Source of the DNA: a phage
Assembly (NCBI GenBank): GCA_020241865.1
Contig: GCA_020241865.1_4709.1
DNA: 64,000 bases
Strand: one strand, 5' to 3'
The translations under genes and the position numbers were made by a program. The notes below the pieces were generated by a model that worked only from the letters and a program-made list of their open reading frames with translations, had not been told where the DNA came from and searched no databases. Shown here piece by piece: positions 33,173 through 46,800 of this stretch. The stretch's first letter is position 1. Every line of letters begins with the position of its first letter.

Positions 33173-35785
33173 TTAAGCGTCCGGCGTAAAATCAAAAGGA
33201 ATGTCCGTACGAATGATATCATAACGTTTTCCGAGGAAATAAAACTCTTCGGGAACCTGACCGGGAATAATGCTATCACCGATGAACTGCGGATACGCCC
33301 AGATGTACTGAGTGAGTCCTTCGAACATATCCAGGTTATTTGCGTGGTTACCCATGATACGTTTCCAGAGTTCGCGTTTATACGGCGTTTTAACATCGAA
33401 ACCATAAAGCGGTGCAAGATCTTCACCAGGAACAAATCCCAGGTAATAGTGAATCTGACTAACCGGGAAACCAAGCGTATCTCGCGGAATGGTGATCGCT
33501 TGCTCAGCTTTGGTGACATGCGTTTCAATAATCCAGTCGTAACACTCTGAATAGAACCGATCGAATTTCTCTGGATTATACCACGCTTTGGGAAGATTCA
33601 GTTTCTCCGTGAACGCATTCGACATGATCGTCGGTAAGAACGGAAGAACACCGGTTTTGATCTGCGTGTATTTCGATTTTACCCGGTTAGCCAAATTCCA
33701 GCAACTGTATCCTAACTGTTCGTTACAAAACTCAACGTAGAGATCGTAATCACCGCCGGATAATGGGTTGTTGATATCACCAATGTCTGCAGCGTATTTG
33801 TTGGGATATCGGTTATTGAAAGCCAGTTTGGTTTGGTAATCGTAGATACACGGTTTGTTGTTCGCTGTATTGATCCACCACCAGGGTTCACCCACCTGTA
33901 CACAAATGTCCTGGACATGAGGGTAAATAATATCGGCAAACGCGGTTAACACATCCCCTAACCACGCCATCGCCTGTTGGTTACATGGAGACAGCAACCA
34001 GGATGGTGGTGTATATCCGGTTGCTGCGATGTTTCCTTCCCAATCCTGCTGCGCCCACTCGAACGGGCATGCTGTACTCATCAATTCGTAACTTAAACTG
34101 ATGGTGACAGAGAAATGGTGTTTTGCAGCATATGCGGCGAAAGCTTCATGCCACGCGATACAGGGTGGATTTAATACATCCGTGGTGTTCACCAGTAACT
34201 TACCCGCACTTGGCGTCCAGACAGTATCGTAGAAATGCGACATTCCAACATAATGCACTAATTCATCTTGATACCCCGCATAAACCAGGTTCTCAAATAC
34301 GCGCTCCGGCGTGATGTTGTAATGGTCATCATAAGCGGTTATCGCACGAAGTTCGTGTGGTGTACAGTGGTGACGATTAACCGTCATTTCCTGATACACC
34401 CCATCGATAGGAAGAATCTCGAGGGTTAAACCGAGGTCGATTGGCGTTTCCAGATAGGTCGTTTCAGTCGCACCTTCCTTATAATGTCGAGAACTCATGC
34501 TGAACATCAACGATGCTACCGATTCGAGTTCGATAGGCTCGTCAGCATAGAACCCCGCCATTGCGTCATTGAAATCGATCGTTACGATTGCGCTTCTACC
34601 GTCTTCAGAGACATCGGTGGCGTATCGGGTTAATGAGATATACTGACGGCTATCGTCTTTGTGTACGACGGTTAAAACCGGCGGGTTTTCGGTATCTGCA
34701 AAGTTACGCTGATCGCCAGTAAACGTGATCTTCGCTTTAAAGATCAAACCGAATAACGACGTCATGGGATCATACGCAATACAACCGTGATCCAGCGTAT
34801 CCGTTGTCCGCCATTCTATCCCGACCAACCCGTTAGCGGTATGGCATCGCATATACGCATTAAGTACCATGTCTTCACTGACAACCGCGAAGTTCTCTGT
34901 TGACTGACCGTTGATAATCCAATACATCGGTTGCCAGAGGTTACGCGTACCTTTTGCGTAGCGGTAGGTTGGTGCGCCTTTGGGGTTGCCATTATTAAGA
35001 TGGAATACTGCAGTACCTTGATAATGGTCGTTCGTATTAATCGGAACACTGTAAGCGTCACCGAGGTCCGTACGTTCCACCTTCGTGACCGTTGCGTTTT
35101 CAAATAACCCACGCAGCGCGGGTAAACCGATATCTTCAGGCGCGTTTTCTCGACGAATCGCATCCGCGATGCGATGGGCTAAGGCGGGGTAAATAGCTTC
35201 ACCCTGTTGTAGGTTTGCAAGACCTACAAAGCGATCAGGGTCGATACCAGCAATCAATAACTCAACATCACCCTTCGTTCTATCGTCGTTAAGATATTTC
35301 AGTCCGGTAAGGTCAAGATGCTGAATAAGCGACAACAGGTTGTATTTACGGTTTTCAACAGTTAGTACAAGATCGCCTGCCCAAACCAAACTTCCCTCAT
35401 CCGCTGTTACTTTAACAGATTGTCGGCCTGTGGTAGACGTTGTTGTCGTTTTATTTAATTGTCCTTGTAGGAAGTCGGTTGCGAGGTCAAAGGCAATGCC
35501 GTAACGGTCAGCGACCGCTTGCATGATTTCACGTAACTGGGTATCTTCTTCAATGATAATCTTGACAGGTATTCCCAGGAACGCTTTAGCGAGGTCTCGT
35601 TTAACCAACGAGACGAATACGGATTTGTAGTATCGGCTTCCATCTTTCCCTTTAAAAAGAATGGAGGTTGTTTCGGGTGCCGATAGAACACGTGCAAATA
35701 CAACATCGTCGGAAGTAAGAGAAAGTCCGTTTTTCTCGTTGACCAATCCTAGTATTTCATTTTGCGCGGTTTCATGTAACTTCAT
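33173..35785 (-). CDS. tail fibre/tailspike-like protein (870 aa) with shared N-terminal anchor domain
   Basis: N-terminal ~130 aa (YxSVFVSLVKRDLAKAFLGIPVKI, RYGIAFDLATDFL) paralogous to N-termini of 41406..41933, 42090..43844, 47493..48323. Confidence 0.7.
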   Translation of the reverse strand: MKLHETAQNEILGLVNEKNGLSLTSDDVVFARVLSAPETTSILFKGKDGSRYYKSVFVSLVKRDLAKAFLGIPVKIIIEEDTQLREIMQAVADRYGIAFDLATDFLQGQLNKTTTTSTTGRQSVKVTADEGSLVWAGDLVLTVENRKYNLLSLIQHLDLTGLKYLNDDRTKGDVELLIAGIDPDRFVGLANLQQGEAIYPALAHRIADAIRRENAPEDIGLPALRGLFENATVTKVERTDLGDAYSVPINTNDHYQGTAVFHLNNGNPKGAPTYRYAKGTRNLWQPMYWIINGQSTENFAVVSEDMVLNAYMRCHTANGLVGIEWRTTDTLDHGCIAYDPMTSLFGLIFKAKITFTGDQRNFADTENPPVLTVVHKDDSRQYISLTRYATDVSEDGRSAIVTIDFNDAMAGFYADEPIELESVASLMFSMSSRHYKEGATETTYLETPIDLGLTLEILPIDGVYQEMTVNRHHCTPHELRAITAYDDHYNITPERVFENLVYAGYQDELVHYVGMSHFYDTVWTPSAGKLLVNTTDVLNPPCIAWHEAFAAYAAKHHFSVTISLSYELMSTACPFEWAQQDWEGNIAATGYTPPSWLLSPCNQQAMAWLGDVLTAFADIIYPHVQDICVQVGEPWWWINTANNKPCIYDYQTKLAFNNRYPNKYAADIGDINNPLSGGDYDLYVEFCNEQLGYSCWNLANRVKSKYTQIKTGVLPFLPTIMSNAFTEKLNLPKAWYNPEKFDRFYSECYDWIIETHVTKAEQAITIPRDTLGFPVSQIHYYLGFVPGEDLAPLYGFDVKTPYKRELWKRIMGNHANNLDMFEGLTQYIWAYPQFIGDSIIPGQVPEEFYFLGKRYDIIRTDIPFDFTPDA

Positions 35786-35807
35786 TAAAAACCTCAGCCC
35801 TTTAGAA

Positions 35808-36449
35808 TTAAATGTACTGCTTACCGCCCACGAAGGAAGTTAACCAGTTCCCGCTGACGAGTTGTGATACCCAGCCTGGAACGGCTCTACCATTCTGGCT
35901 CATGATGTTACCACACCAACCAGGGAATCCGGGACGGATGTAATAGAAAGTTAAATTGTAGAGATGGCAATTCCATACCGCAACGTTATGTTTACCAGAA
36001 ACCGCTTTAAAGACAAACGCGACAGGTAACGGAGACGATAACAATTCGGTCACAGGGACGGCTGACCAGTTCGCATTCGCGTTCCATGGTTGCCAGGTAT
36101 GGCTGCGCGAGTCGCAATATACGTTACCGTTGTTACCGCGCCCACCCGCATTCCACCACAGCGACGGACTCATGTTCTTAAGTGAGGTAAATTGCTGCGG
36201 TGGAATATTAGGAATAATAACAGGGTTGGTACCTTGCCCATGTTTCTTTTCTTTTGCGTTCACATACCCGCTTATCGATTCGAGGTATTTGACACCAGGA
36301 TAATTATTCTGGACTTGTGTCGCAATATCACGAACATCGAACGTCCAGCAGATCATGGTGTTGTAGTAAGCATCGGTGTTGTCGTACCATGCGTTACCAT
36401 CTTGTAAACGTGCGCCACTATTCGGTGTTTTATCTGTGTTTATAGCCAT
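35808..36449 (-). CDS. hypothetical protein (213 aa), paralog of 36561..37277 (conserved C-terminal 45 aa)
   Basis: C-terminus RPGFPGWCGNIMSQNGRAVPGWVSQLVSGNWLTSFVGGKQY nearly identical to neighbour. Confidence 0.75.
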   Translation of the reverse strand: MAINTDKTPNSGARLQDGNAWYDNTDAYYNTMICWTFDVRDIATQVQNNYPGVKYLESISGYVNAKEKKHGQGTNPVIIPNIPPQQFTSLKNMSPSLWWNAGGRGNNGNVYCDSRSHTWQPWNANANWSAVPVTELLSSPLPVAFVFKAVSGKHNVAVWNCHLYNLTFYYIRPGFPGWCGNIMSQNGRAVPGWVSQLVSGNWLTSFVGGKQYI

Positions 36450-36547
36450 AGTGTTGTCCTATACTGCGATGATTGAGATATCGGATGCCGGATGTGTGTT
36501 GCCATCAGGTGGTACGTACAGAAACACCCACAGATAAAACAGTAGCT

Positions 36548-36578
36548 TATCTAACTTCAATTAAATTGAAGTTAGATA
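36548..36578 (-). terminator. perfect 15-bp inverted repeat (1-nt spacer), AT-rich hairpin overlapping stop codon of 36561..37277
   Basis: TATCTAACTTCAATT-A-AATTGAAGTTAGATA; followed on minus strand by U-rich sequence. Confidence 0.45.
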
Positions 36579-37277
36579 TTGTTTACCTCCAACAAACGAC
36601 GTTAACCAATTACCTGAAACAAGTTGCGATGCCCAGCCAGGCACTGCCCTACCGTTCTGGCTCATCACGTTACCTGCCCATCCCGGAAAACCAGGTCGGA
36701 AAATATATACTTGAATATGTGTTAAAGCGTTATCATTACCACCGCCAACAGCAACGTTACGACTCCCAGATGACGGGAAATATTCTTTTAAGAACAGAGG
36801 ATCGGTTGCTAATAAAGATGCGGGCCAAGGGTTCGCAGATGCATCAACATCGAATTCGGTCCATCGCCATTTACGTCCCGTGTCGAACCATGTCGATGTA
36901 CCACCACCCCTCACGACAAGATTGCGCGCATCATGGACATTATAAATTGATTCGATGTTACGCCATCCACCTTTTGCAGCGTTTGCTGCATAGCAAACCG
37001 CATTACCACCATTCTTCTTCTCGTAAACGGTTCGTTTGATATGAACACGGTCGATGAACGCTTCACCGTATTTGTTGACGAGCGTTTGTGCGATATCACG
37101 AAGATCGTGCATGTGAAAAGCGATGTCTTCGTTATGGAACCATGTTGTCTGGTTCCAGACGGTACCGTTTGGTTCGGCACACATCGATCGGATATTGTTG
37201 CGTTGATTAATCGCGATAAAACCCATTGTATACCTCGTTCCTATTCTCAAAAAGGAAATTTCATACGATGACGCCAT
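36561..37277 (-). CDS. hypothetical protein (~238 aa), paralog of 35808..36449
   Basis: ORF 36561..37313; N-terminal 12 codons of track ORF translate the GC hairpin; ATG 37277 has AGGAGG RBS. Confidence 0.7.
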   Translation of the reverse strand: MASSYEISFLRIGTRYTMGFIAINQRNNIRSMCAEPNGTVWNQTTWFHNEDIAFHMHDLRDIAQTLVNKYGEAFIDRVHIKRTVYEKKNGGNAVCYAANAAKGGWRNIESIYNVHDARNLVVRGGGTSTWFDTGRKWRWTEFDVDASANPWPASLLATDPLFLKEYFPSSGSRNVAVGGGNDNALTHIQVYIFRPGFPGWAGNVMSQNGRAVPGWASQLVSGNWLTSFVGGKQYLTSI

Positions 37278-37314
37278 AGCAGCTCCTCCTTCCCTTACGG
37301 GTTGGAGGAGCATA
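37275..37314 (-). terminator. GC-rich palindromic hairpin (family member, reverse orientation) containing the AGGAGG RBS of 36561..37277
   Basis: CTCCTCCTTCCC-TTAC-GGGTTGGAGGAG. Confidence 0.55.
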
Positions 37315-37319
37315 CTTAA

Positions 37320-37826
37320 TTACTTACTGATAACCTCAACGGAGTTGGGATCAGCGATCAATGCACGATCGGTAGAACAGTTGAAGAAGACCATACCAAC
37401 ACCATCACCGTTCGAGTTCAGGGTTGAACTTACATAAGACAGGGTTGGTTTATTCATGCGGTAGAAGCGTTCGCTGGTAGTGGTATTGAACCCCAGATCA
37501 ACGTAGTCTTTCACCGTGGTGTACAACTGTGTGGACTCGAAAACGGTTACCGGAGAGTCAACGGTAAACTGACTGCCTTCATCCACAACCAGAACTTTAT
37601 CGTTCCAGATTTCAGTGGTTGAAAACTTCGGTTTCCAGTGTTCGAATTCCTGGGTTGCGCCCCAGCAAGAATAAACAGCGAGATTGCTGTTCTTCTCAAC
37701 AGGTTTCAACCCCACCAGTTGTGTCAGGTCTTTATCCAGGTTCGGTAAGCCTTCCAGCGTAGCGCACCCACCCAGAGAAAGTACCATCAACATACCAAGA
37801 ACGATCGCGCAGAGTTTTTTCATCAT
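37320..37826 (-). CDS. predicted lipoprotein (~168 aa)
   Basis: signal peptide MMKKLCAIVLGMLMVLSLGGC with lipobox-like LGGC; ATG 37826 with AGGAA RBS; immediately downstream of tail fibre gene. Confidence 0.7.
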   Translation of the reverse strand: MMKKLCAIVLGMLMVLSLGGCATLEGLPNLDKDLTQLVGLKPVEKNSNLAVYSCWGATQEFEHWKPKFSTTEIWNDKVLVVDEGSQFTVDSPVTVFESTQLYTTVKDYVDLGFNTTTSERFYRMNKPTLSYVSSTLNSNGDGVGMVFFNCSTDRALIADPNSVEVISK

Positions 37827-37874
37827 TAGATTTCCTTGTGTGTTAACGGAAGTGACTTCCATAAGGATTGATGA

Positions 37875-40800
37875 TTACTTTTTGAGCGCTTTAAGTTCTT
37901 CTTCCAACGCTTCCACTTTTGCCGTAAGCTTCTGTACTTGTTTGATTAATGGAACCACCAAACGTTCGTACATGACACCTTCAGCGACGAGTCCGTTAGA
38001 AGAAACGATAGCGGGGTCATCTTCTTCTGTTGCATCACGCCAGTGCACGTACTGCGGTGCGATCTCGCCAACCTCTTCAGCAATCAACCCATACCAACCC
38101 CAATCCTTGTTGTCTGCTTCACATGTAGAACGATACCACACAGGACGCATCTCCAATACTTTATCCGCTTGTTCATCCGTGATATTCTCGATATCTTTCT
38201 TATAGCGACGCGACGACGTTGAACGAAACACATTGTTGATCCCAGAAACAGGACTGATATACATGTTAGCCCCGCTGGTTGTAGTGCTAATGTCCCATAC
38301 CGCAAATCCGCCGTTACTCCCATTTTTTACGATCAATGTGTTGGCAATAATGTCCAGGTTATTGTCGTAACCGGTTAATTGTCTTTCCGTTACATAACTG
38401 GATAGATTGACCGAGTAGTTCTTACTGTTATAACAACGACGCCATCCTGGGCTGTTGGTACTGCCATTATAGTTGTCGTAGCTATAAATGAACTCGGAGT
38501 TGGTTTTCGCACCACTGACGGAAGACGTGGTTGCGGTCGTAACACGGATGGTATAGTTTGTCATCCCGAAGCTAACGACCTCGATAACAGCACCAGCCAG
38601 AGGGATAATACCGCACTTGGTTTCACTGTCTGGGATGTATGCGCTGTCGGCAGCTGCGAAGGAGCAACGTGCGACCCAGGCGCGGGTATTGAATGCACCT
38701 TGGTTTTGCAACAACGTGATAAACGATGAGGTCGTAATCGAGCTGTTATTATCACCGGTGATCAACCAGCCGGTCGGGCATGCGGTTGCGCCAACGTTTT
38801 TCGCTGTTAACGTGATGTTCTGCGATCCGTCGAAGGCTACGCCACTGATAGTACGCGCAGTCTGCAGTTTCGTCGCCGTTGCTGCGTTCCCTGATGTGTT
38901 CTGGTTCCCTGCGGCGTTAACACCCGGCAGATTGATATTCGCACTACCGTCGAAAGACACCCCACCAATGGTGCGGGCGGTTTTCAGTTTTGTCGCCGTG
39001 GCGGCATTACCGGTCGTGTCTTGGTTACCGGTGGTGTTTACCCCAGGTAGGTTGATATTGGCCGTTCCGTTAAATGAAACACCACCAATCGTCCGTGCCG
39101 TTTGCAACTTCGTTGCGGATGCCGCATTCCCCGTGGTGTTTTGGTTACCTGTTGTATTCACACCTGGGATACTATCCTTAGATGTGTAGATCTGTGCCCA
39201 TTCCGACCAGTTCGCATCTGATGCATCACGACGCGAACGTAGGTAAGCTGGAGCGTGTGCGCCTGAAGTACCTGACCATCCAATAAGGATCTCACCTTCA
39301 CCTACTGCGGTTGCTCCTTTAAGATGAACAACGTTACCGTAGGCTGTAGGGTATCCGTTATTGTACGCTTCATACATCTGGATACCCGTATTGCTGCCCT
39401 GGGTCGCATTAGCTAAAGCGGTGACCCGTCCCTTGGAAGCGAGCACGTTAATGCTAAAGCTAATATCGGTTGTACCGTCAAAGGCGACCCCATTAATCCT
39501 CCGCGCTGTTTGGAGTTTCGTGGCAGTAGCCGCATTACCAGAGGTACTCTGATTGCCTGCTTTGTTCACACCTGGTAAATCAATGTTGGCGGTTCCATCA
39601 AAGGACACGCCCCCTATGGTTCTCGCCGTCTGAAGTTTTGTTGCTGAACCAGCGTTTCCGGAAGTGCTTTGATTACCCGCCGCGTTGACACCTGGTAGGT
39701 TAATGCTAGCAGAACCATCAAAAGAAACTCCACCGATCGTAATAGCTGTTCGCAACTTCGTGGCTGTCGCAGCGTTACCCGTCGTATTCTGATTACCAGC
39801 TGCATTGACGCCAGGTAATGCGATATCAGCTGTGCCATCGAACGCGACACCTCCGATTTTACGGGCGGTTTGTAGCTTGGTTGCTGTAGCAGCATTACCG
39901 CTGGTATTTTGCGTACCGGCTTTATTTACACCAGGAAGATCGATGTTAGCAGAACCATCGAAGCTGACGCCACCTATCGTTCTTGCAGTAGCAAGTTTAG
40001 CGGCTGTAGCAGCGACGTTACCGACTTTTAACCATTCTCCCCATGGACCATCCACACCGTTCCATGATGCCGTTAAACTGCGCACGTATATGTTTCCTGT
40101 ACGTACTGTGTAACGTTGTGTTCCACCGAATTGACCGGCTGGGAGCACTTCGATGTAACCTACAGCATTTGCTTCAGGGAAATTGTGGGCAGCATCGGCA
40201 TTCGTTGATGTTTGTTTGGACCAAATACCCACAGACGCTTCAACCGGACCGTAGGTATTCAGGTTTGCATCGGTTGGGAGTTGTCCTCTGAAACGACGGA
40301 ACGACGAGGCGTTAATTCCCAATATCGTTTGCATCCCTTCAACACCGGACTGCTGTAAGAGAGCGCGTGCGGTAGAAGTGATCGTTGCAAGCGCTACTTT
40401 ATCAGCACCTGTGAAATACGGTAATTTATTCGCTGATGTTGTTAGTCCAGAAAGGGCTGTGAGCAAAGCGTTCAGCGGTTGTTTGCCAGCTAAAGCGTTT
40501 GTTACAGTTGTCGCGAAGTTAGGATCGTTACCTAACGCTTGCGCCAATTCATTGAGTGTGTCCAACGCTTCAGGAGACGATCCGACAAGCGCTGCGATAG
40601 CACGCATCACAAATTCGGTATTCGCAATCTGCTGACTTTTATCGCCTTCGGCTGCGGTTGGTGTTGTCGGCTTATCGGTAAATGCCGGGCTAGAAAGATC
40701 CGCTTTAGCGCTAATTTGTGTTGCTAGGACTTTCCCGGCTTTCGCGGATAGTGCGAGTACTTCACTATCACTGTTCGTCGCCGAGGTTAACTGAACTAAC

Positions 40801-41399
40801 CCTTTACGTGTGGTACTAGCGTCCACTGCTGTGTACTTTCCTTTCGCAACATCCATCACAGCTTTAACTGCTTTTGATGTTGCGGCTTTGGTTTCGTCGT
40901 CACTATTTGTTTCGCTGCTAAGGATCGTTAATCCCCGTTTCTCGGTGGTCGCATCTGGTAAGAATGCGTCACTAACAACCTTCAATTCGATCGCATCGGT
41001 ATTGCTTACGACAACAAATACCTGACAATTTAACACACGTCCTGCCCCTTCGGAAGGCAGTGGTTTGTACCCTTCTGGCGCATTGCCGACAACGACAAGT
41101 TCACCCTGATCGTCGTACAGACCGATCTCACGCACCCAGAACCCACCTTGACTGGCGGGAATAATGCCTTCAACAACAATCCGGGTTGTGTCGTCAACAT
41201 CAATGTGGATGTTAGAAACTTCCCCACGATAAACTTCGTGTACGAGCGCTGTTTGGCTAACATCGGGGGTTGGTGTAGAGCCGTTTCCGTCACCAACAGC
41301 AAAATGTGTGATTCTTAGTTTCTCACCGTCAGGAAGTAGCGCTGCGGCAATACGTTCAGCGCCTTTATCGGTAATGACCGTTTTATAAGTTGTACTCAT
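37875..41399 (-). CDS. long tail fibre (1174 aa) with tandem 38-aa repeats and C-terminal S74-type intramolecular chaperone domain
   Basis: TTRKGLVQLTSATNSDSE fibre motif (cf. lambda Stf); ~8 repeats of ATKLQTARTIGGVSFDGSANINLPGVN; C-terminal SSRRYKKDIENI...WGWYGLIAEEVGEIAP matches auto-cleaving chaperone signature. Confidence 0.85.
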   Translation of the reverse strand: MSTTYKTVITDKGAERIAAALLPDGEKLRITHFAVGDGNGSTPTPDVSQTALVHEVYRGEVSNIHIDVDDTTRIVVEGIIPASQGGFWVREIGLYDDQGELVVVGNAPEGYKPLPSEGAGRVLNCQVFVVVSNTDAIELKVVSDAFLPDATTEKRGLTILSSETNSDDETKAATSKAVKAVMDVAKGKYTAVDASTTRKGLVQLTSATNSDSEVLALSAKAGKVLATQISAKADLSSPAFTDKPTTPTAAEGDKSQQIANTEFVMRAIAALVGSSPEALDTLNELAQALGNDPNFATTVTNALAGKQPLNALLTALSGLTTSANKLPYFTGADKVALATITSTARALLQQSGVEGMQTILGINASSFRRFRGQLPTDANLNTYGPVEASVGIWSKQTSTNADAAHNFPEANAVGYIEVLPAGQFGGTQRYTVRTGNIYVRSLTASWNGVDGPWGEWLKVGNVAATAAKLATARTIGGVSFDGSANIDLPGVNKAGTQNTSGNAATATKLQTARKIGGVAFDGTADIALPGVNAAGNQNTTGNAATATKLRTAITIGGVSFDGSASINLPGVNAAGNQSTSGNAGSATKLQTARTIGGVSFDGTANIDLPGVNKAGNQSTSGNAATATKLQTARRINGVAFDGTTDISFSINVLASKGRVTALANATQGSNTGIQMYEAYNNGYPTAYGNVVHLKGATAVGEGEILIGWSGTSGAHAPAYLRSRRDASDANWSEWAQIYTSKDSIPGVNTTGNQNTTGNAASATKLQTARTIGGVSFNGTANINLPGVNTTGNQDTTGNAATATKLKTARTIGGVSFDGSANINLPGVNAAGNQNTSGNAATATKLQTARTISGVAFDGSQNITLTAKNVGATACPTGWLITGDNNSSITTSSFITLLQNQGAFNTRAWVARCSFAAADSAYIPDSETKCGIIPLAGAVIEVVSFGMTNYTIRVTTATTSSVSGAKTNSEFIYSYDNYNGSTNSPGWRRCYNSKNYSVNLSSYVTERQLTGYDNNLDIIANTLIVKNGSNGGFAVWDISTTTSGANMYISPVSGINNVFRSTSSRRYKKDIENITDEQADKVLEMRPVWYRSTCEADNKDWGWYGLIAEEVGEIAPQYVHWRDATEEDDPAIVSSNGLVAEGVMYERLVVPLIKQVQKLTAKVEALEEELKALKK
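38790..40025 (-). repeat. in-frame tandem ~114-bp (38-aa) repeats inside tail fibre gene, two blocks (approx 38790-39180 and 39450-40025)
   Basis: periodic DNA/protein repeats; antisense ORFs here are repeat artefacts. Confidence 0.8.
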
Positions 41400-41405
41400 G
41401 GCGTT

Positions 41406-41933
41406 TTATCCCGGGTAAATAGTGATGACATCACCGATGACAGTTGCCGCACCGGCGCAAAGATACGCTGGTGATGTATCACGCTGGTTTGTCACGATAA
41501 GATCCAATTGCCCACGCCAAACCATGGAGGTATTCGCGATGGGAATCGAGATCTTCTTGGATGTGTCGTCACGAAAATCAATGACAGTAGCAAGGATAGC
41601 TGAATCAAAATCAGCATCGGTTTCAAAGATGAATCCGTACTGATCTGAAATAGCTTGAATAACCGCTCTTATAGTTGTTGTTTCAACCGACTCCAAAACG
41701 ATTTTCATCGGTATCCCTAGAAACGCTTTCGCGATATCACGTCGTGTGTAAGTGATAAAACTTTCACCACACCACCTTGTTCCTTCATTTGCTGTGACGA
41801 TCACTTTTGCCCTGTTAGCACCAGAACTCCTATCCAGGGTTAAAGTGAGATCGGAGTTGCTGAACACGCTACCGTTACGTTGGTTTATCAACGTAATCAG
41901 TTCGTCTTTCCACGGCAGGTAAAGTGAACGCAT
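41406..41933 (-). CDS. short protein (~175 aa) consisting mainly of the shared tail-fibre N-terminal anchor domain
   Basis: ORF 41406..41954; ATG 41933 (MRSLYLPWKDELI) with GGAGG RBS; YTRRDIAKAFLGIPMKI, DQYGFIFETDADF blocks. Confidence 0.65.
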   Translation of the reverse strand: MRSLYLPWKDELITLINQRNGSVFSNSDLTLTLDRSSGANRAKVIVTANEGTRWCGESFITYTRRDIAKAFLGIPMKIVLESVETTTIRAVIQAISDQYGFIFETDADFDSAILATVIDFRDDTSKKISIPIANTSMVWRGQLDLIVTNQRDTSPAYLCAGAATVIGDVITIYPG

Positions 41934-41950
41934 AAGCGCACCCTCCTCCA

Positions 41951-42001
41951 ACAATCAAATTAAGATGCAAAACGCCTCGAAACCGGAGTGCGATTCGAGG
42001 C
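41951..42001 (-). terminator. putative intrinsic terminator downstream of 42090..43844
   Basis: GCCTCGAA-loop-TTCGAGGC followed on minus strand by GUUUUGCAUCUUAAUUU. Confidence 0.45.
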
Positions 42002-42039
42002 AAACGTAAACAGTCTTAACGACCGCATAAAATTCCGCG

Positions 42040-42093
42040 CATATTACCCCCCCCCCCCTCGCTTCGTCGAGGTAGGGGAGGATAACACTTTAT
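42040..42093 (-). terminator. degenerate family-like hairpin containing a C12 homopolymer
   Basis: CATATTA-C12-TCG-CTTCGT-CGAGGTAGGGGAGG...TTTATG downstream of 42090..43844 stop. Confidence 0.35.
42047..42058. repeat. C12 homopolymer tract (intergenic)
   Basis: 12 consecutive C between 41933 start and 42090 stop. Confidence 0.7.
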
Positions 42094-43844
42094 GCCGCTA
42101 CATACCCAGGCCAACGTTCTCTTGGCCAGTTTGTTGCGCCCTGTCCAACGTTGTCCTTACCAGAAGTTACATTACTTACGTCCCAACCACTAAGATCCTG
42201 GTTAAATGCGGTGTTGTTGCGCATCATGAGGTCGATCCTACGTAACGATTGGGTATTCCAGCCGGAAATGTCTTGGTTGAATGCCGCGTTGTAAGCAAAC
42301 ATGTTAACAACGTCTTGTAATTTTGAAGTGTTCCAGCCGCTTATATCGCTATTGAACCGCATGTTCGAGAACATACTGCTAGCGTTGACAAGACTACCTG
42401 TTTTCCAGTTAACCAGCTTGTCCCCATCAAGTGCATAGCAGCTACTGAACATGTAACTCATGTCGTTAACTTTGGATACATCCCATTTATCTAACCCGTT
42501 ACCAACGAACTTGCGACAATCTTGGAACATCGAGCTCATATCGGTAACCTGGCTCACATTCCATTTGCTAAAGTCGAGGTTGAGGTTTGTGCATCCGGAG
42601 AAGGTTTGATACATACTGGTGATACGACTAACATCCCATTCTTGAATGTTAGGATCATTAAGTATAGATAAGAATTTGAACAATTCGTCTAACGACGTCC
42701 ATTTCTCTGGGATACGGTTTGGTACGGTACGGAGTGATAAAAGGTAACTGGTTGACGGAGAGCGGAACATACCGTTATCCCAATTTACGATTTCTGTAAT
42801 GTTGGACCCACGGATCGTTTGGCGTCCGTTACCATTATACACAGACCCTGTTGCAGTTATTGTATATTCGTTTGTATCAGCATACGTATATTCAGCCTGT
42901 GTAGGCCACTCACCTATTACATCCCTATTCCCATCGCCCCAATCAATGGAAATATCTATCCAACCATCAAGATCTAGGGTAACGGTCCCGCCATTGGTCT
43001 TCAGGACGTATTTACCTGCATTGTCGGTATAATAACAAACAATCATCGCACCGTACAGGTTACCAATTTGCCAATCATCCTTTTGAGTTACCGCGATATG
43101 TGCTGTGCCACGTTGTAGGAAAAGAACCGTACGGTTCTCGTCAGTCTGTAATGTGGTTAATGCTTGAGCCTTATCATCGTCGGTAATTTCACCAGCTTCC
43201 ACTAAAGCACTTAACATTCTTTCGAAGTATTCGATGGGTAATTGGCGTCCTACAGACATATCAACTGATGGAACAGCGAGATCATCCAATGCGGCGGCAG
43301 TTGCAAGCACTAATGATCCATTGGTGGTGTCTGTTTCTTGGAGGTAATGCAGTCCCGTAATCTGGTACGCTTGAATGATTGTAATCAGATCCAGCGTATC
43401 GTTAATGACCTGTACTTGTAAATGTCCAGACCAAACATAGCTGCTTTCAGCAATCGGTAATTCGACCGACTGAATACCCGATGTTTCAAAACTGATCTTC
43501 TTATTAAGATCGGCTTCCAGGAAATCAACCGCGAGGTCGAAATTTATACCGTACTTTTCAGCGATGGAATCTATGATGTTCCTGAAAGCAACATCGGTAC
43601 TTACGATGAATCGTAAAGGGATTCCTGTGAACGCATTAGCAATATCTCGACGAACATACGTAAGTGATTGTTCGAAGAAATAGGGACTGTTATCTCCAGG
43701 TTTGATGGTTACCTGACACATTTCAGGATGTTCAGCTGGGATGAACGATTCAAATTTAACATCGGATTCCTTCAACGAAAGCATGTTCTTCCGGTTTACC
43801 AGCGCCAGAAGATCGGCTTTCCATCCAGGATAAACAGTAGACAT
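42090..43844 (-). CDS. tail fibre/receptor-binding protein (~584 aa): shared N-terminal anchor domain plus C-terminal DUF285-like repeats
   Basis: N-terminus paralogous to 33173..35785; C-terminal repeats FxxCxxF...WDVSKV/ISGWNTS/LSGWDVSNVT; ATG 43844 with GGAG RBS. Confidence 0.75.
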   Translation of the reverse strand: MSTVYPGWKADLLALVNRKNMLSLKESDVKFESFIPAEHPEMCQVTIKPGDNSPYFFEQSLTYVRRDIANAFTGIPLRFIVSTDVAFRNIIDSIAEKYGINFDLAVDFLEADLNKKISFETSGIQSVELPIAESSYVWSGHLQVQVINDTLDLITIIQAYQITGLHYLQETDTTNGSLVLATAAALDDLAVPSVDMSVGRQLPIEYFERMLSALVEAGEITDDDKAQALTTLQTDENRTVLFLQRGTAHIAVTQKDDWQIGNLYGAMIVCYYTDNAGKYVLKTNGGTVTLDLDGWIDISIDWGDGNRDVIGEWPTQAEYTYADTNEYTITATGSVYNGNGRQTIRGSNITEIVNWDNGMFRSPSTSYLLSLRTVPNRIPEKWTSLDELFKFLSILNDPNIQEWDVSRITSMYQTFSGCTNLNLDFSKWNVSQVTDMSSMFQDCRKFVGNGLDKWDVSKVNDMSYMFSSCYALDGDKLVNWKTGSLVNASSMFSNMRFNSDISGWNTSKLQDVVNMFAYNAAFNQDISGWNTQSLRRIDLMMRNNTAFNQDLSGWDVSNVTSGKDNVGQGATNWPRERWPGYVAA

Positions 43845-43859
43845 AAGCACTCCAATCAT

Positions 43860-43876
43860 GGGGCGGTAACCGCCCC
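43860..43876 (-). terminator. short perfect GC hairpin between 43883..47479 and 42090..43844
   Basis: GGGGCGG-TAA-CCGCCCC; no U-run, may be RNA structural element rather than terminator. Confidence 0.4.
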
Positions 43877-43882
43877 CATCAG

Positions 43883-46800
43883 TTAAATTGTCGGTTTCAC
43901 GTCGCGTAATAGGGCAATATAATAGCCTAATCCTCGGAGGATCTCCCCACTCCAGAAACCAAAATACATTCCGTCTCTGCCGAGATTAGCACTATCTGGT
44001 GCAGGACTCCACCCACCATTCATTGCGTCATCAACGGTGTAGCGGTTGATGTAGTTTTCAACGATTTCATTATAAACGTTAACGGCAACAGGATAGCCTT
44101 TATCGTTGGGATGCCCATACAACATCGCTAACGACGCACCCGCTAACCATAATCCTGCCATATGACCAGTAAAGTCATTAGGGATAAAAGCAGGGGGTTT
44201 ATCCATCGGAAAATCCGTAGGAGATTGATAAGCGTTTTCCTGTTGATACGTAAACAAGAAATCGATCCAATGGCTGATGTAAGTGGTTAACTTCTCAGGG
44301 ACAGCCAAACCACGATCAAGCAGTCCGGCATAAAGCCTCACCACTGAAAAGAAAGCCCTCGGCTGATAACCAGGCCATGCTGTCTGATCGCCGAAGTGGT
44401 ACATCGTAAAATCATTAACTTTCGATCCGCTTGGCGCATCCCAACGATCCCACACGTACGCACTTGCTCCTGGCCCTAAAACCCCGAATTTCTGATAATA
44501 CCACTGCTGCGAGTCATACCAGAAATTCACAACATTCTGAATCATGAGGTCACGTCGTTCAGCCGATACGTCCATATCCAGGAAGACCCATGGATGTTGG
44601 TAGCCGGGATAAGGCTGACCACGCCAGCTGTCGAACGTCGGTGCGTTAGGGATATAGTTGTTCGAGAACGGAATAATACCCGGAGTATAAGGCAATGGAT
44701 CCAGACGTTGGTTGACAATCGTACAATCGCCAACACGCAATGTGCCCTCTGCCTCAAAGATTGCTTTTAACGTAAACAGCATGGTATATCCGTCATCCGT
44801 GGTGTAAGTTGACGGTGGATTGTTGATGGCGTAAAGCTTAAATACCCCTTCAGCGATATCGCTGTCATCAGGCAAGAACAGAATTTCAGTTGAACCGTCG
44901 CCCCACACAGGTGCGGAAGGTTTAGGGTCAGTATCAGCATGGCCAGGTTGATACCCTGAGAGCCTCCATCCGTTCGCCGAAAGCGTCAATGTATTTCTTG
45001 CTGTGGTGGCCGGTAGCATATACCACCATCGCCAACCATTTGCATCTTCTACACGAACGTTGTAGTCAATCGACGCGAAATAACTGACCTGCCTTACGAT
45101 CTGTTTTGCGGTTGGATTGAATTCAAATTGTCCGCCTGCCGCAGTAAGCTGCGCTTTTAGGAACAACCCATCCCAGGAATCTTCCACTGCTTCGCTGAAT
45201 TCTGTTGTGATTGCGATATCGTCTTTCCAGCCGACTTTATCAGCCGACATCAACACCGAACCTGTAACAGCATCACCGGTTGGTATTGAAGCTTCATCAA
45301 CCGCATCAGCGGGAATCAACGAGCCTATTTTGAAATCCCATCCTTTCGGTTCAACGCTGGAAGGTAATACCAGCTTGTACGTTTTGGCTTTCGCTTCGGT
45401 TTTGTCCAAAGAAAGCGATAATGAGATCTCAACCGGAATTGCAACGCCTGTCGTATCTTTACCGCCGCAGGTTACCCGAAGAATTGAATCACGATTGACG
45501 CGGAACGGAATGGCCTGCTGTTCAAGGTAAATTTGTGCTGAAGATGCTTGAATCACGATCCAACCATCGGTATCACGCGTGATTGTGAACGGCGCTTTCG
45601 ACGGGTATGTATACGTGTAAGCGATACCGTCGGTGTCGTAACGATCGGTTCCTTTTACTTGACGGAAGAACTTATCGTTAGCGTCAATACGGGTATATTC
45701 TTCAATCGTAAACAAAGACGCCTTGTACGCTTTCTGATAACGCTCCTGCTGCGTTAAACGGTATAAGGTGTAGGCTGCTTCACAAAACCACTGTTCAGCG
45801 TCTGACGCGTTTCCCATGTAGTCTCTGGTGACCGGCACCTGGATCGGTCGGTTATGCTGACACTCGTTCGTTTTGATAAGGTATCCGCCATATTCAACAG
45901 GAACACGCGGTGCCCATGCAACCAAGTAAGAACCGCTGACGGATTTATTTTTGAGTACGATAGTACCTACTTCATCGTCAGTACACGCTTCAAGATCGTC
46001 CCCGTCAGCACTTACGTAACGTTTTGTGCGTAACGCAACTTTCTCGATAGGGAACACCGTACCCTTTGTATCCCAGTCAATCGTCCCATCATCATTGGTT
46101 TTGAACACATCCGCGTTCAAATTCTGCCAGCCGAGTTTACCTTCATAGACCTGAACAACAAGATCCATGTATTCCCCGAACGTTGGTGCCCCATGTGTTA
46201 TTTTCCCGATACCGTTGGTGAATGTAACCGCTGTGTCATGGAAACCGCCATGTGTTGGGTAATCGTCTTTTGCAAGAGGATAATGGGCCAACACAGGTTG
46301 TTTACCATTAACAATCCAGTTAGCGATCCAGCGTGCCGGTGTATCCGGTGGTTCAAGGCCTGCATAGAACGCTTTTATATACGCATCGAACGATGCCTCT
46401 GCTAATGTGAGATAGTGCGCTTTAAGCTTGGTATCATCCGTTGTATGACTGAATATACCCGCACCCAGAATTAACAACGACTGTCCTTCTGTTGTTGCGT
46501 CACCATCCGGTTGTGCTTCTTGTCGTGTTGCTGCAATGAAATGACGGTTGTTTACCATGACCCCGCTTTCATTTAACACGTAATGATCGGTTTCTGGGTC
46601 GGTAAACGTTCCTGTGTTTCGGGTTAAGAATCTTGCATGGCCATAACCAACGAAATTAACCGGCGACGCTGTAATCATCCATTTACCGATAAGTTGAGCA
46701 ACATCATTATAACGCTCGGATGCGGTGATTTGTTTCACGTACCAGTCTTTATGGTTAAATGTCCAAAGCAGGAAGTAATAAGTTGTATCGATTTCCATCA

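Follow-up and report, generated by a model that had tools for sequence, protein, structure and literature searches.

A predicted jumbo-phage tail fibre with a modular shaft, an exchangeable tip and a putative self-cleaving chaperone

Little is understood of how nucleus-forming jumbo phages recognise their hosts. We analysed a 64,000-nucleotide stretch of phage DNA (the window; contig GCA_020241865.1_4709.1 of GenBank assembly GCA_020241865.1) and asked what kind of fibre is encoded by one of its genes, how that fibre matures and how it differs from its relatives. A preliminary description had reported a tail fibre of 1174 amino acids (aa) at 37875-41399, and the open reading frame list bears this out, with 1174 aa plus a stop codon on the minus strand. 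We think it likely that the product is a homotrimeric fibre of a Goslar-like jumbo phage, with a modular shaft, an exchangeable tip and a self-cleaving peptidase-S74 chaperone. Table 1 collects its features.

Table 1. Features of the fibre gene and its predicted product, from N to C terminus
Feature	Residues (aa)	Window coordinates	Strand	Basis
Tail-fibre CDS, Goslar gp090 orthologue		37875..41399	-	ORF list, megablast to Goslar, synteny
P2 gpH-type N-terminal domain (PF12571), presumed baseplate-attachment end	1-141	40977..41399	-	Pfam, E 6.9e-43
Two Phage_fiber_2 repeats (PF03406)	151-240	40680..40949	-	Pfam, E 3.4e-22
First globular (knob-like) domain, before repeat block 1	~380-462	40014..40262	-	Sequence and alignment to relatives
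Repeat block 1: four full 40-aa units and a truncated fifth	463-662	39414..40013	-	
Inter-repeat globular domain (knob 2), 96 aa, non-repeat	663-758	39126..39413	-	
Repeat block 2: two full units and a truncated third	759-878	38766..39125	-	
Tip domain, candidate receptor-binding part	879-1003	38391..38765	-	Homology to Mu tail fibre S, P1 S and E. coli prophage fibres
Short stalk, predicted new C-terminus after cleavage, ends ...NNVFRST(1061)	1004-1061	38217..38390	-	
Peptidase-S74 intramolecular chaperone, 113 aa, 13.0 kDa	1062-1174	37878..38216	-	Pfam, residue equivalence, conservation
Predicted nucleophile Ser1062	1062	38214-38216 (codon)	-	Pfam-profile equivalence to T5/K1F residues
Terminal coiled-coil helix	~1144-1173	37881-37970	-	AF2

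A fibre gene at the Goslar gp090 locus

By synteny and domain content, the gene probably encodes the tail fibre of a jumbo phage of E. coli/Salmonella that is Goslar-like (Chimalliviridae). Goslar gp090 (vB_EcoM_Goslar; YP_009820775.1, 1324 aa) has the same locus, neighbours, N-terminal domain, knobs and 40-aa units. In both genomes a DUF7941 gene (gp091) lies on one side and a gp088 homologue on the other; the latter, just downstream of the fibre in the window, has no Pfam match. By megablast, DNA identity to Goslar is 75-88% in the fibre gene up to its last unit and 95-96% in the flanks, and a fibre gene sits at the equivalent position in nine of nine complete related loci. Mass spectrometry has found Goslar gp90 in virions (preprint 10.64898/2026.04.21.720040). 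The gene is of an ordinary type and the system of an already-known kind, and it also belongs to a good natural series.

The front end is that of P2 gpH, P1 S and Mu S. PF12571 is followed by the Phage_fiber_2 repeats, and the fibre motif noted in the preliminary description, TTRKGLVQLTSATNSDSE, is present at aa 196, inside the second of the two. In Goslar and some relatives, a globular insert of ~140 aa stands in place of this second repeat. No Pfam model covers the first knob-like domain. Knob 2 is widespread, occurring in fibres of P1, 9g, T4-like Acinetobacter phages and Vibrio phages, and some relatives (those of the L019 type) lack it.

The protein could instead form some other fibrous appendage, for example one tied to the DUF7941 'fibre cloud', rather than the long tail fibre of the baseplate. 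The flanking DUF7941 genes are proposed to form extended filaments, and cryo-EM of Goslar neither resolved the tail fibres nor allowed the fibres and the peripheral baseplate to be assigned (preprint 10.64898/2026.04.21.720040). However, the fibre protein contains no DUF7941 domain, its N-terminus matches the tail-collar/baseplate-attachment module of P2-type fibres (PF12571, E 7e-43), and the rest of its architecture is that of P1/Mu/lambda-type fibres. We consider a non-baseplate appendage unlikely. The match to the P2-H-type domain, together with synteny and an identity of about 82-88% with Goslar gp90, agrees with the tail-fibre assignment of the preliminary description.

A putative self-cleaving chaperone at the C-terminus

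The extreme C-terminus, the last 113 aa, has the profile of a peptidase-S74 chaperone. Peptidase_S74 (PF13884) matches aa 1062-1118 with 34.2 bits in the whole protein, above the cut-off of 22, as expected from the C-terminal S74 domain of ~115 aa that had been proposed; the predicted released fragment is 113 aa. Scored in isolation, aa 1041-1174 reach 38.2 bits, comparable to T5 pb1 (40.1) and K1F (39.4). Ser1062 and Lys1067, the latter the predicted general base, fall on the catalytic profile positions: position 1 is Ser1264 in T5 and Ser911 in K1F, and position 6 is Lys1269 and Lys916, residues whose catalytic roles have been described (PMC4690869). A threonine precedes the serine in all three proteins (T5 T1263, K1F T910, window T1061). 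Among 44 homologues, R1059, S1060, T1061, S1062, S1063 and K1067 are each at least 90% conserved.

Structural comparisons lend specific, weak-to-moderate support to a possible fold like that of the solved S74 chaperones (3GW6, 4UW8 and the MyRF ICA, 7DC3). AF2 predicts a helix at aa ~1144-1173 (pLDDT 82-95), and in profile searches against the PDB this heptad-like terminal helix matches trimeric coiled-coil peptides. By sequence, phmmer found a single PDB match (E 1.7e-4), 8hqz_d, the L-shaped fibre of DT57C, which aligns over the whole S74 domain. Among the top 50 BFVD matches, the great majority of those with names are S74, intramolecular-chaperone or L-shaped-fibre proteins. A Foldseek search of the PDB with the S74 model returned no match. 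Profile searches of the PDB that started from mixed alignments failed to recover S74 chains, and an AF2 monomer model of aa 860-1174 was too poor to use (pLDDT 49). With hhalign, the homologue profile aligned to the T5 and K1F C-termini through the terminal helix alone, and the common Pfam model therefore served as the bridge to those proteins; similarity to K1F gp17 is too low for direct profile-to-sequence alignment past that helix.

T5 pb1 and the DT57C L-shaped fibre have a C-terminal S74 chaperone with Thr|Ser...Lys(+5), a terminal coiled coil and a comparable Pfam score, but they are siphovirus side fibres whose shaft and receptor-binding domain are unrelated to those of the window fibre. 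The K1F endosialidase gp17 (PDB 3GW6) is, unlike the window fibre, a podovirus tailspike and carries an enzymatic domain.

An S74-like domain could also stay on the mature fibre uncleaved, with no role beyond trimerisation or capping. The structural matches are weak, and the canonical T5/K1F upstream motif D-N-x3-L-G-x4-R (-25/-14) is absent at its usual spacing, including the T5 Asp1239/Arg1250 sensor. Those 'folding sensor' residues (T5 D1239/R1250, K1F R897) lie outside the Pfam domain; the Arg, contributed by a neighbouring chain, and the Asp are described for K1F and T5 as sensing whether the trimer has folded correctly. In the window fibre's S74 subfamily, an Arg at -3 (R1059) is nearly invariant. 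Against retention, the Thr-Ser...Lys(+5) arrangement is intact and conserved in at least 90% of homologues, and the Pfam score is on par with those of two proven self-cleaving members. In T5, a chaperone that stays uncleaved prevents receptor binding (PMC4690869), so keeping the domain would probably be harmful. We regard retention as quite improbable and infer self-cleavage at Thr1061-Ser1062.

By analogy to T5 pb1 and the K1F endosialidase, three chaperone domains would associate through the terminal coiled coil and template the folding of the distal trimer. Lys1067 would then activate Ser1062 to cut the Thr1061-Ser1062 bond, giving predicted products of 1061 aa (109.3 kDa) and 113 aa (13.0 kDa). 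Release of the chaperone would expose the receptor-binding end of a mature 1061-aa, 109-kDa fibre. From its N-terminus, the 122-kDa precursor would start with a P2-gpH-type attachment domain and two Phage_fiber_2 repeats, followed after a helical linker by the first knob. Five 40-aa units of the shaft would lead to knob 2 and three further units, and a Mu-S-like tip, a short stalk and the 113-aa S74 chaperone would complete it.

Shaft units and fibre length

The shaft is built of eight in-frame units in two blocks, 5 + 3, in line with the roughly eight repeats in two blocks first described. The period is 40 aa (120 bp) rather than the 38 aa (114 bp) given there. The truncated fifth unit of block 1 continues into knob 2. 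The six full units are 72-90% identical in protein sequence, far above chance. They had been called near-perfect repeats at the DNA level, which they are not: mean pairwise DNA identity is 60%, the maximum 71% and the longest common exact run 13 nt. Tandem Repeats Finder reported nothing because the units are too diverged in DNA, and the repeats were therefore defined from the protein sequence. We found no solved structure for the 40-aa unit or the knob, no PDB relative of the unit by sequence and no NCBIfam model for it.

The silent sites of the units are saturated, and we conclude nothing beyond that. Between units of the window fibre, the codon is identical at only 28% of identical residues. 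Active codon scrambling against recombination was considered and rejected: same-codon use in the window is 0.281 against a permutation mean of 0.323 (z -2.4), and the effect is not reproduced in four relatives (z -0.7 to -1.1).

Related fibres vary in length by whole units without exception. We counted units with an HMM in nine loci and in 120 proteins, most of the relatives compared coming from metagenome or draft assemblies. The 120 related fibres span 838-1571 aa, with 2-8 units in block 1 and 1-4 or none in block 2; Goslar gp090 has 7 + 4 and the window fibre 5 + 3. Orthologous units are 82-97% identical in DNA and paralogous units within one genome at most 78%, and crossover junctions are in frame and in register. 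The comparison shows the shaft to be a population-level length ladder, on which whole units are gained or lost through in-register crossovers between diverged paralogues. Variation in repeat number between isolates, as the preliminary description anticipated, is real in relatives; the cause given for it does not hold, as the crossovers join units that are ~60-78% identical. Being so diverged in DNA, the units are not classical recombination-prone perfect repeats. A literature search on fibre repeat-number variation or Goslar-family fibre cassettes found nothing specific.

That the differences are short-read assembly artefacts of a repetitive gene is very improbable, even given the predominance of metagenome and draft sequences and an N gap in one locus (L003): exact runs common to units are at most 13-23 nt, far below assembler k-mers (contigs are named k141_), identical configurations recur across several independent clusters and samples, the curated Goslar reference (7,4) itself differs from the window (5,3), and every junction is in frame and in register.

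Exchangeable tips on a common shaft

The comparison also shows that the tip and the S74 domain form one of three exchangeable C-terminal cassettes, joined within the last unit of block 2, where the junction falls at ~38795-38856. The tip (aa ~895-1000) has a homologue in one domain of phage Mu S (PDB 8ju3, E 9.5e-7, profile against PDB). Its identity is 62-65% to Cyrano and P1 (tblastn) and 63-69% to E. coli prophage fibre proteins, and the whole tip-plus-S74 module recurs at 59% identity in an E. albertii fibre (P0004). The second cassette type, that of Goslar itself, has a glycine-rich tip (PF21722) followed by a separate assembly-protein gene; the third has a short tip with neither S74 nor a separate assembly protein. 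Each cassette has its own folding strategy: fused S74, separate Caudo_TAP assembly protein, or neither. Goslar gp090 and the window fibre accordingly end differently, the latter in a Mu-S-like tip fused to S74.

Downstream of the window fibre there is no Caudo_TAP gene, although one is present in Goslar and in two related loci (L013, L006); the window fibre therefore combines a P2 gpH/P1 S/Mu S front end with a different folding system. P1 S also carries the 40-aa unit and the knob. In P1 and Mu, however, assembly depends on a separate protein (U) and tips are exchanged by inverting DNA, unlike in the window cassette. We rejected a P1/Mu-style invertible tip segment, having found no flanking inverted repeats in 34500-44500. 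Long tandem runs of the unit set the Goslar group apart from P1/Mu and prophage fibres.

A broader reading is possible, and we put it forward as speculation. The unit array (2-8 plus 0-4) may be a selected, population-level length ruler, so that the fibre's reach fits how deep the host surface layer is; the last unit may be a universal splice point, and tips with three folding strategies, drawn from the fibre genes of unrelated phage families, may be functionally interchangeable on one shaft.

Goslar-like phages that are ~95% identical elsewhere differ mainly in shaft-unit number, C-terminal tip and the way the tip is folded. They offer a natural series ready for asking how host range depends on fibre length and tip type. 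The locus also makes it possible to ask whether a self-cleaving chaperone fused to the fibre and an assembly protein encoded apart from it are interchangeable solutions. In phage engineering, the last 40-aa unit offers a natural junction at which to swap tips.

A Goslar-type fibre with a fused chaperone

The window carries a genuine fibre ORF in a Goslar-like setting. Escherichia phage vB_EcoM_Goslar is a 237-kb nucleus-forming jumbo phage. At 95–96% identity across the flanks and 75–88% across the fibre gene, the region is by sequence from a close relative of Goslar, and the gene an orthologue of gp090, which in Goslar lies between gp091 (a DUF7941 gene) and gp088. The protein clearly belongs with the gp90 group of Goslar. 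gp90 was found by mass spectrometry in Goslar virions, whose fibres were not resolved by cryo-EM (2026 preprint, 10.64898/2026.04.21.720040). The fibre motif of the preliminary description is present in the second Phage_fiber_2 repeat. Likeness to P2/P1/Mu-type fibres is confined to the front end, because the separate assembly protein of those fibres is missing here.

Features of the fibre gene, its surroundings and related contigs
Feature	Nucleotides (strand)	Residues	Details
Fibre gene	37875..41399 (-)	1174 aa	ORF list
P2-gpH-type N-terminal domain, PF12571		1-141	Pfam E 6.9e-43
Phage_fiber_2, PF03406, two repeats			Pfam; second contains TTRKGLVQLTSATNSDSE at aa 196
Repeat block 1	39414-40013 (-)	463-662	four full units, truncated fifth
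Globular domain (knob 2)		663-758	96 aa; separates the blocks
Repeat block 2	38766-39125 (-)	759-878	two full units, truncated third
Peptidase_S74, PF13884		1062-1118	Pfam 34.2 bits; gathering score 22
gp088 homologue	37320-37862 (-)		
DUF7941 protein	42090-43859 (-)	589 aa	
Palindrome	36548-36578		TATCTAACTTCAAT TAA ATTGAAGTTAGATA
Paralogous ORFs	36561-37313 (-); 35808-36449 (-)	250 aa; 213 aa	
Mini-fibre	L002 8001-9089	362 aa	Logan SRR6504847
S74-type single-block relatives	L019 1501-4404		P0165-P0167, P0170-P0173, P0181-P0189
Contigs in isolate assemblies			P0141, P0146, P0162, P0168, P0170, P0171, P0210, P0218, P0232

The C-terminus matches the S74 intramolecular chaperone, as first proposed. 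PF13884 scores above its gathering threshold, and profile positions 1 and 6 place Ser1062 and Lys1067 opposite T5 pb1 Ser1264 and Lys1269 and K1F Ser911 and Lys916. The T5 paper assigns these residues to the scissile bond and the Ser–Lys pair (PMC4690869). A Thr directly precedes the catalytic-position Ser in all three proteins, their S74 bit scores are nearly equal, and scissile-bond and Ser–Lys residues are at least 90% conserved among 44 homologues. Judged by sequence-defined S74 criteria, the window protein qualifies. T5 pb1 and K1F have an Asp/Arg folding sensor upstream of the cleavage site, whereas the window fibre lacks this motif at that spacing and its subfamily instead has a conserved Arg at −3.

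Structural support for S74 is specific but weak. The suggested structure prediction returned BFVD matches that are overwhelmingly S74 proteins, but the AF2 monomer reached only pLDDT 67 and Foldseek found no match in the PDB. Of the solved structures, only that of the DT57C L-shaped fibre is related by sequence (8hqz_d, E 1.7e-4). Separately, an S74 sub-variant (P0142-P0157, P0234) ends in ...TLKDKKGK, not ...EELKALKK, so the terminal coiled coil is itself variable.

Diverged repeats and a length ladder

In-frame tandem repeats exist, in two blocks, but with a period of 40 aa (120 bp) rather than the 38 aa (114 bp) first described. The six full units are 72–90% identical in protein and on average 60% (maximum 71%) in DNA; the longest exact run common to any two is 13 nt, and just 28% of identical residues share a codon. 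Tandem Repeats Finder, one of the checks proposed for these repeats, reported nothing. DNA identity, run length, codon use and this blank result therefore refute near-perfect repeats at the DNA level. Silent sites of the units are saturated. Shared codons are slightly fewer than expected in the window units (z −2.4); we dropped active codon scrambling since the deficit was not seen again in relatives.

Copy number does vary among relatives, as anticipated, but the cause then offered, near-perfect DNA repeats, is wrong for such diverged units. Counted by HMM, units in nine complete Goslar-like loci range from (4,3) to (8,3) in blocks 1 and 2; Goslar itself has (7,4) and the window (5,3). Across 120 proteins, each representing a cluster of protein-search hits (838–1571 aa, mostly on 235–250 kb contigs), block 1 has 2–8 units and block 2 has 1–4 or is missing. 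The S74 class comprises eleven configurations, most commonly (5,3) (29/61), and the window's close relatives (92–98% identity) show (6,3), (5,3), (4,3), (5,2) and (3,3). We infer that the 40-aa units build a putative regular shaft, which would lengthen in step with the number of units.

By sequence, the indels are crossovers that join paralogous units in register. Units have clear orthologues between phages, at 82–97% DNA identity, against at most 78% for paralogous units inside one genome. The window's first unit combines the 5' part of a1 with the 3' part of a4 from the related locus L013, and in Goslar the fourth unit is a4 for ~17 nt and a5 from there on. Relative to the window, L016 is 120 nt longer, and L017 and L018 are 240 and 120 nt shorter; L019 fuses block 1 to block 2, thereby deleting knob 2. 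That assembly collapse produced the unit-number differences is unlikely, given that exact runs common to units are at most 23 nt, that the underlying assemblies are either k=141 or curated, and that identical configurations arise repeatedly and independently.

Many S74-type relatives have a single block of 2–5 units without knob 2 (fibres of 838–1049 aa), so knob 2 is dispensable. Fibres of 1369–1571 aa carry extra inserts, a Gp34_trimer domain among them.

Exchangeable C-terminal ends

Goslar-like phages carry three C-terminal cassettes. Cassette A, the window's, joins a Mu-S-like tip to a fused S74 without an assembly gene. Cassette B, Goslar's, has a glycine-rich tip (PF21722) and a separate Caudo_TAP gene. 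Cassette C (L004, L007, L010; P0175, P0219-P0233) has a 178-aa tip (...GATNEGY), distantly homologous to the window tip domain (38% identity, 86 aa), with neither S74 nor a downstream assembly-protein gene. Which N-proximal module is present, a second Phage_fiber_2 repeat or an insert of ~140 aa, does not depend on the cassette. No inverted repeats flanking the cassette were found within 34500–44500, ruling out P1/Mu-type inversion.

Similarity to the collinear (5,3) relative L010 ends inside the last unit, between ~38856 and 38795. The 336 aa past this junction are themselves mosaic: aa ~861–994 are 62–65% identical to Cyrano and P1 fibres (tblastn), and 63–69% to E. coli prophage fibre proteins, with a homologous domain in Mu fibre S (8ju3, E 9.5e-7). 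At ~64% identity, aa ~1029–1156 match the S74 region in lateral-fibre proteins of ~50-kb siphoviruses. The whole module matches an E. albertii prophage fibre at 59% and metagenomic Goslar-like contigs at 96–99%.

The Goslar-like contig L002 encodes a mini-fibre in which an in-frame 2,694-nt deletion across 11-nt microhomology joins the N-terminal 165 aa straight to the last stalk and S74. At its 3' end it departs from the L011-type gene and so has another C-terminal tail. This may be a true deletion mutant, or else a minor variant.

Neighbouring genes and significance

The gene at 42090-43859, whose 589-aa product adds DUF285/PARCEL repeats to a DUF7941 N-terminus, is an insertion relative to Goslar found in some relatives only (L003, L018, L019). 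DUF7941 proteins have been proposed as a host-recognition 'fibre cloud' of Goslar, so this one may be an additional recognition protein. Directly downstream of the fibre gene, the gp088 homologue (95% nt identity) is kept regardless of cassette; it has a lipoprotein-like N-terminal signal (MKKLCAIVLGMLMVLSLGGC) and probably starts at Met13 or Met14 of the listed ORF. Lying next to a receptor-binding gene, it invites comparison, purely by analogy, with the exclusion lipoprotein Llp of T5. The two paralogous ORFs, 35% identical overall and ~90% over the last 48 residues (...RPGFPGW.GN.MSQNGRAVPGW.SQLVSGNWLTSFVGGKQY), have no match in Pfam, NCBIfam or PHROG; the longer occurs in L007 and L009 but not in Goslar. 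At its end lies a perfect palindrome with a 14-bp stem, which might act as a terminator in both directions or mark a recombination scar at the inserted paralogue's edge.

Goslar-like contigs of ~235–250 kb occur within NCBI assemblies labelled E. coli (including O157) and Salmonella enterica, which suggests a carrier state or contamination, with Salmonella within host range. Cassette type and host label show no obvious association among them.

The analysis shows how the domains are ordered, which residues are the catalytic ones, that no separate chaperone gene is present, that the length ladder runs in whole units, and where the cassette is joined. By analogy with T5 and K1F, the terminal coiled coil would drive trimerisation, the chaperone would template distal trimer folding, and self-cleavage at Thr1061|Ser1062 would then unmask the receptor-binding end. 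The predicted products are a mature fibre of 1061 aa (109.3 kDa) and a released chaperone of 113 aa (13.0 kDa).

Fibres capped by S74, mosaicism of fibre genes and exchange at conserved motifs are known already. The most useful findings are the wide 40-aa length ladder and the use of three folding strategies on a single shaft among jumbo phages that are nearly identical. We found neither described in the literature.
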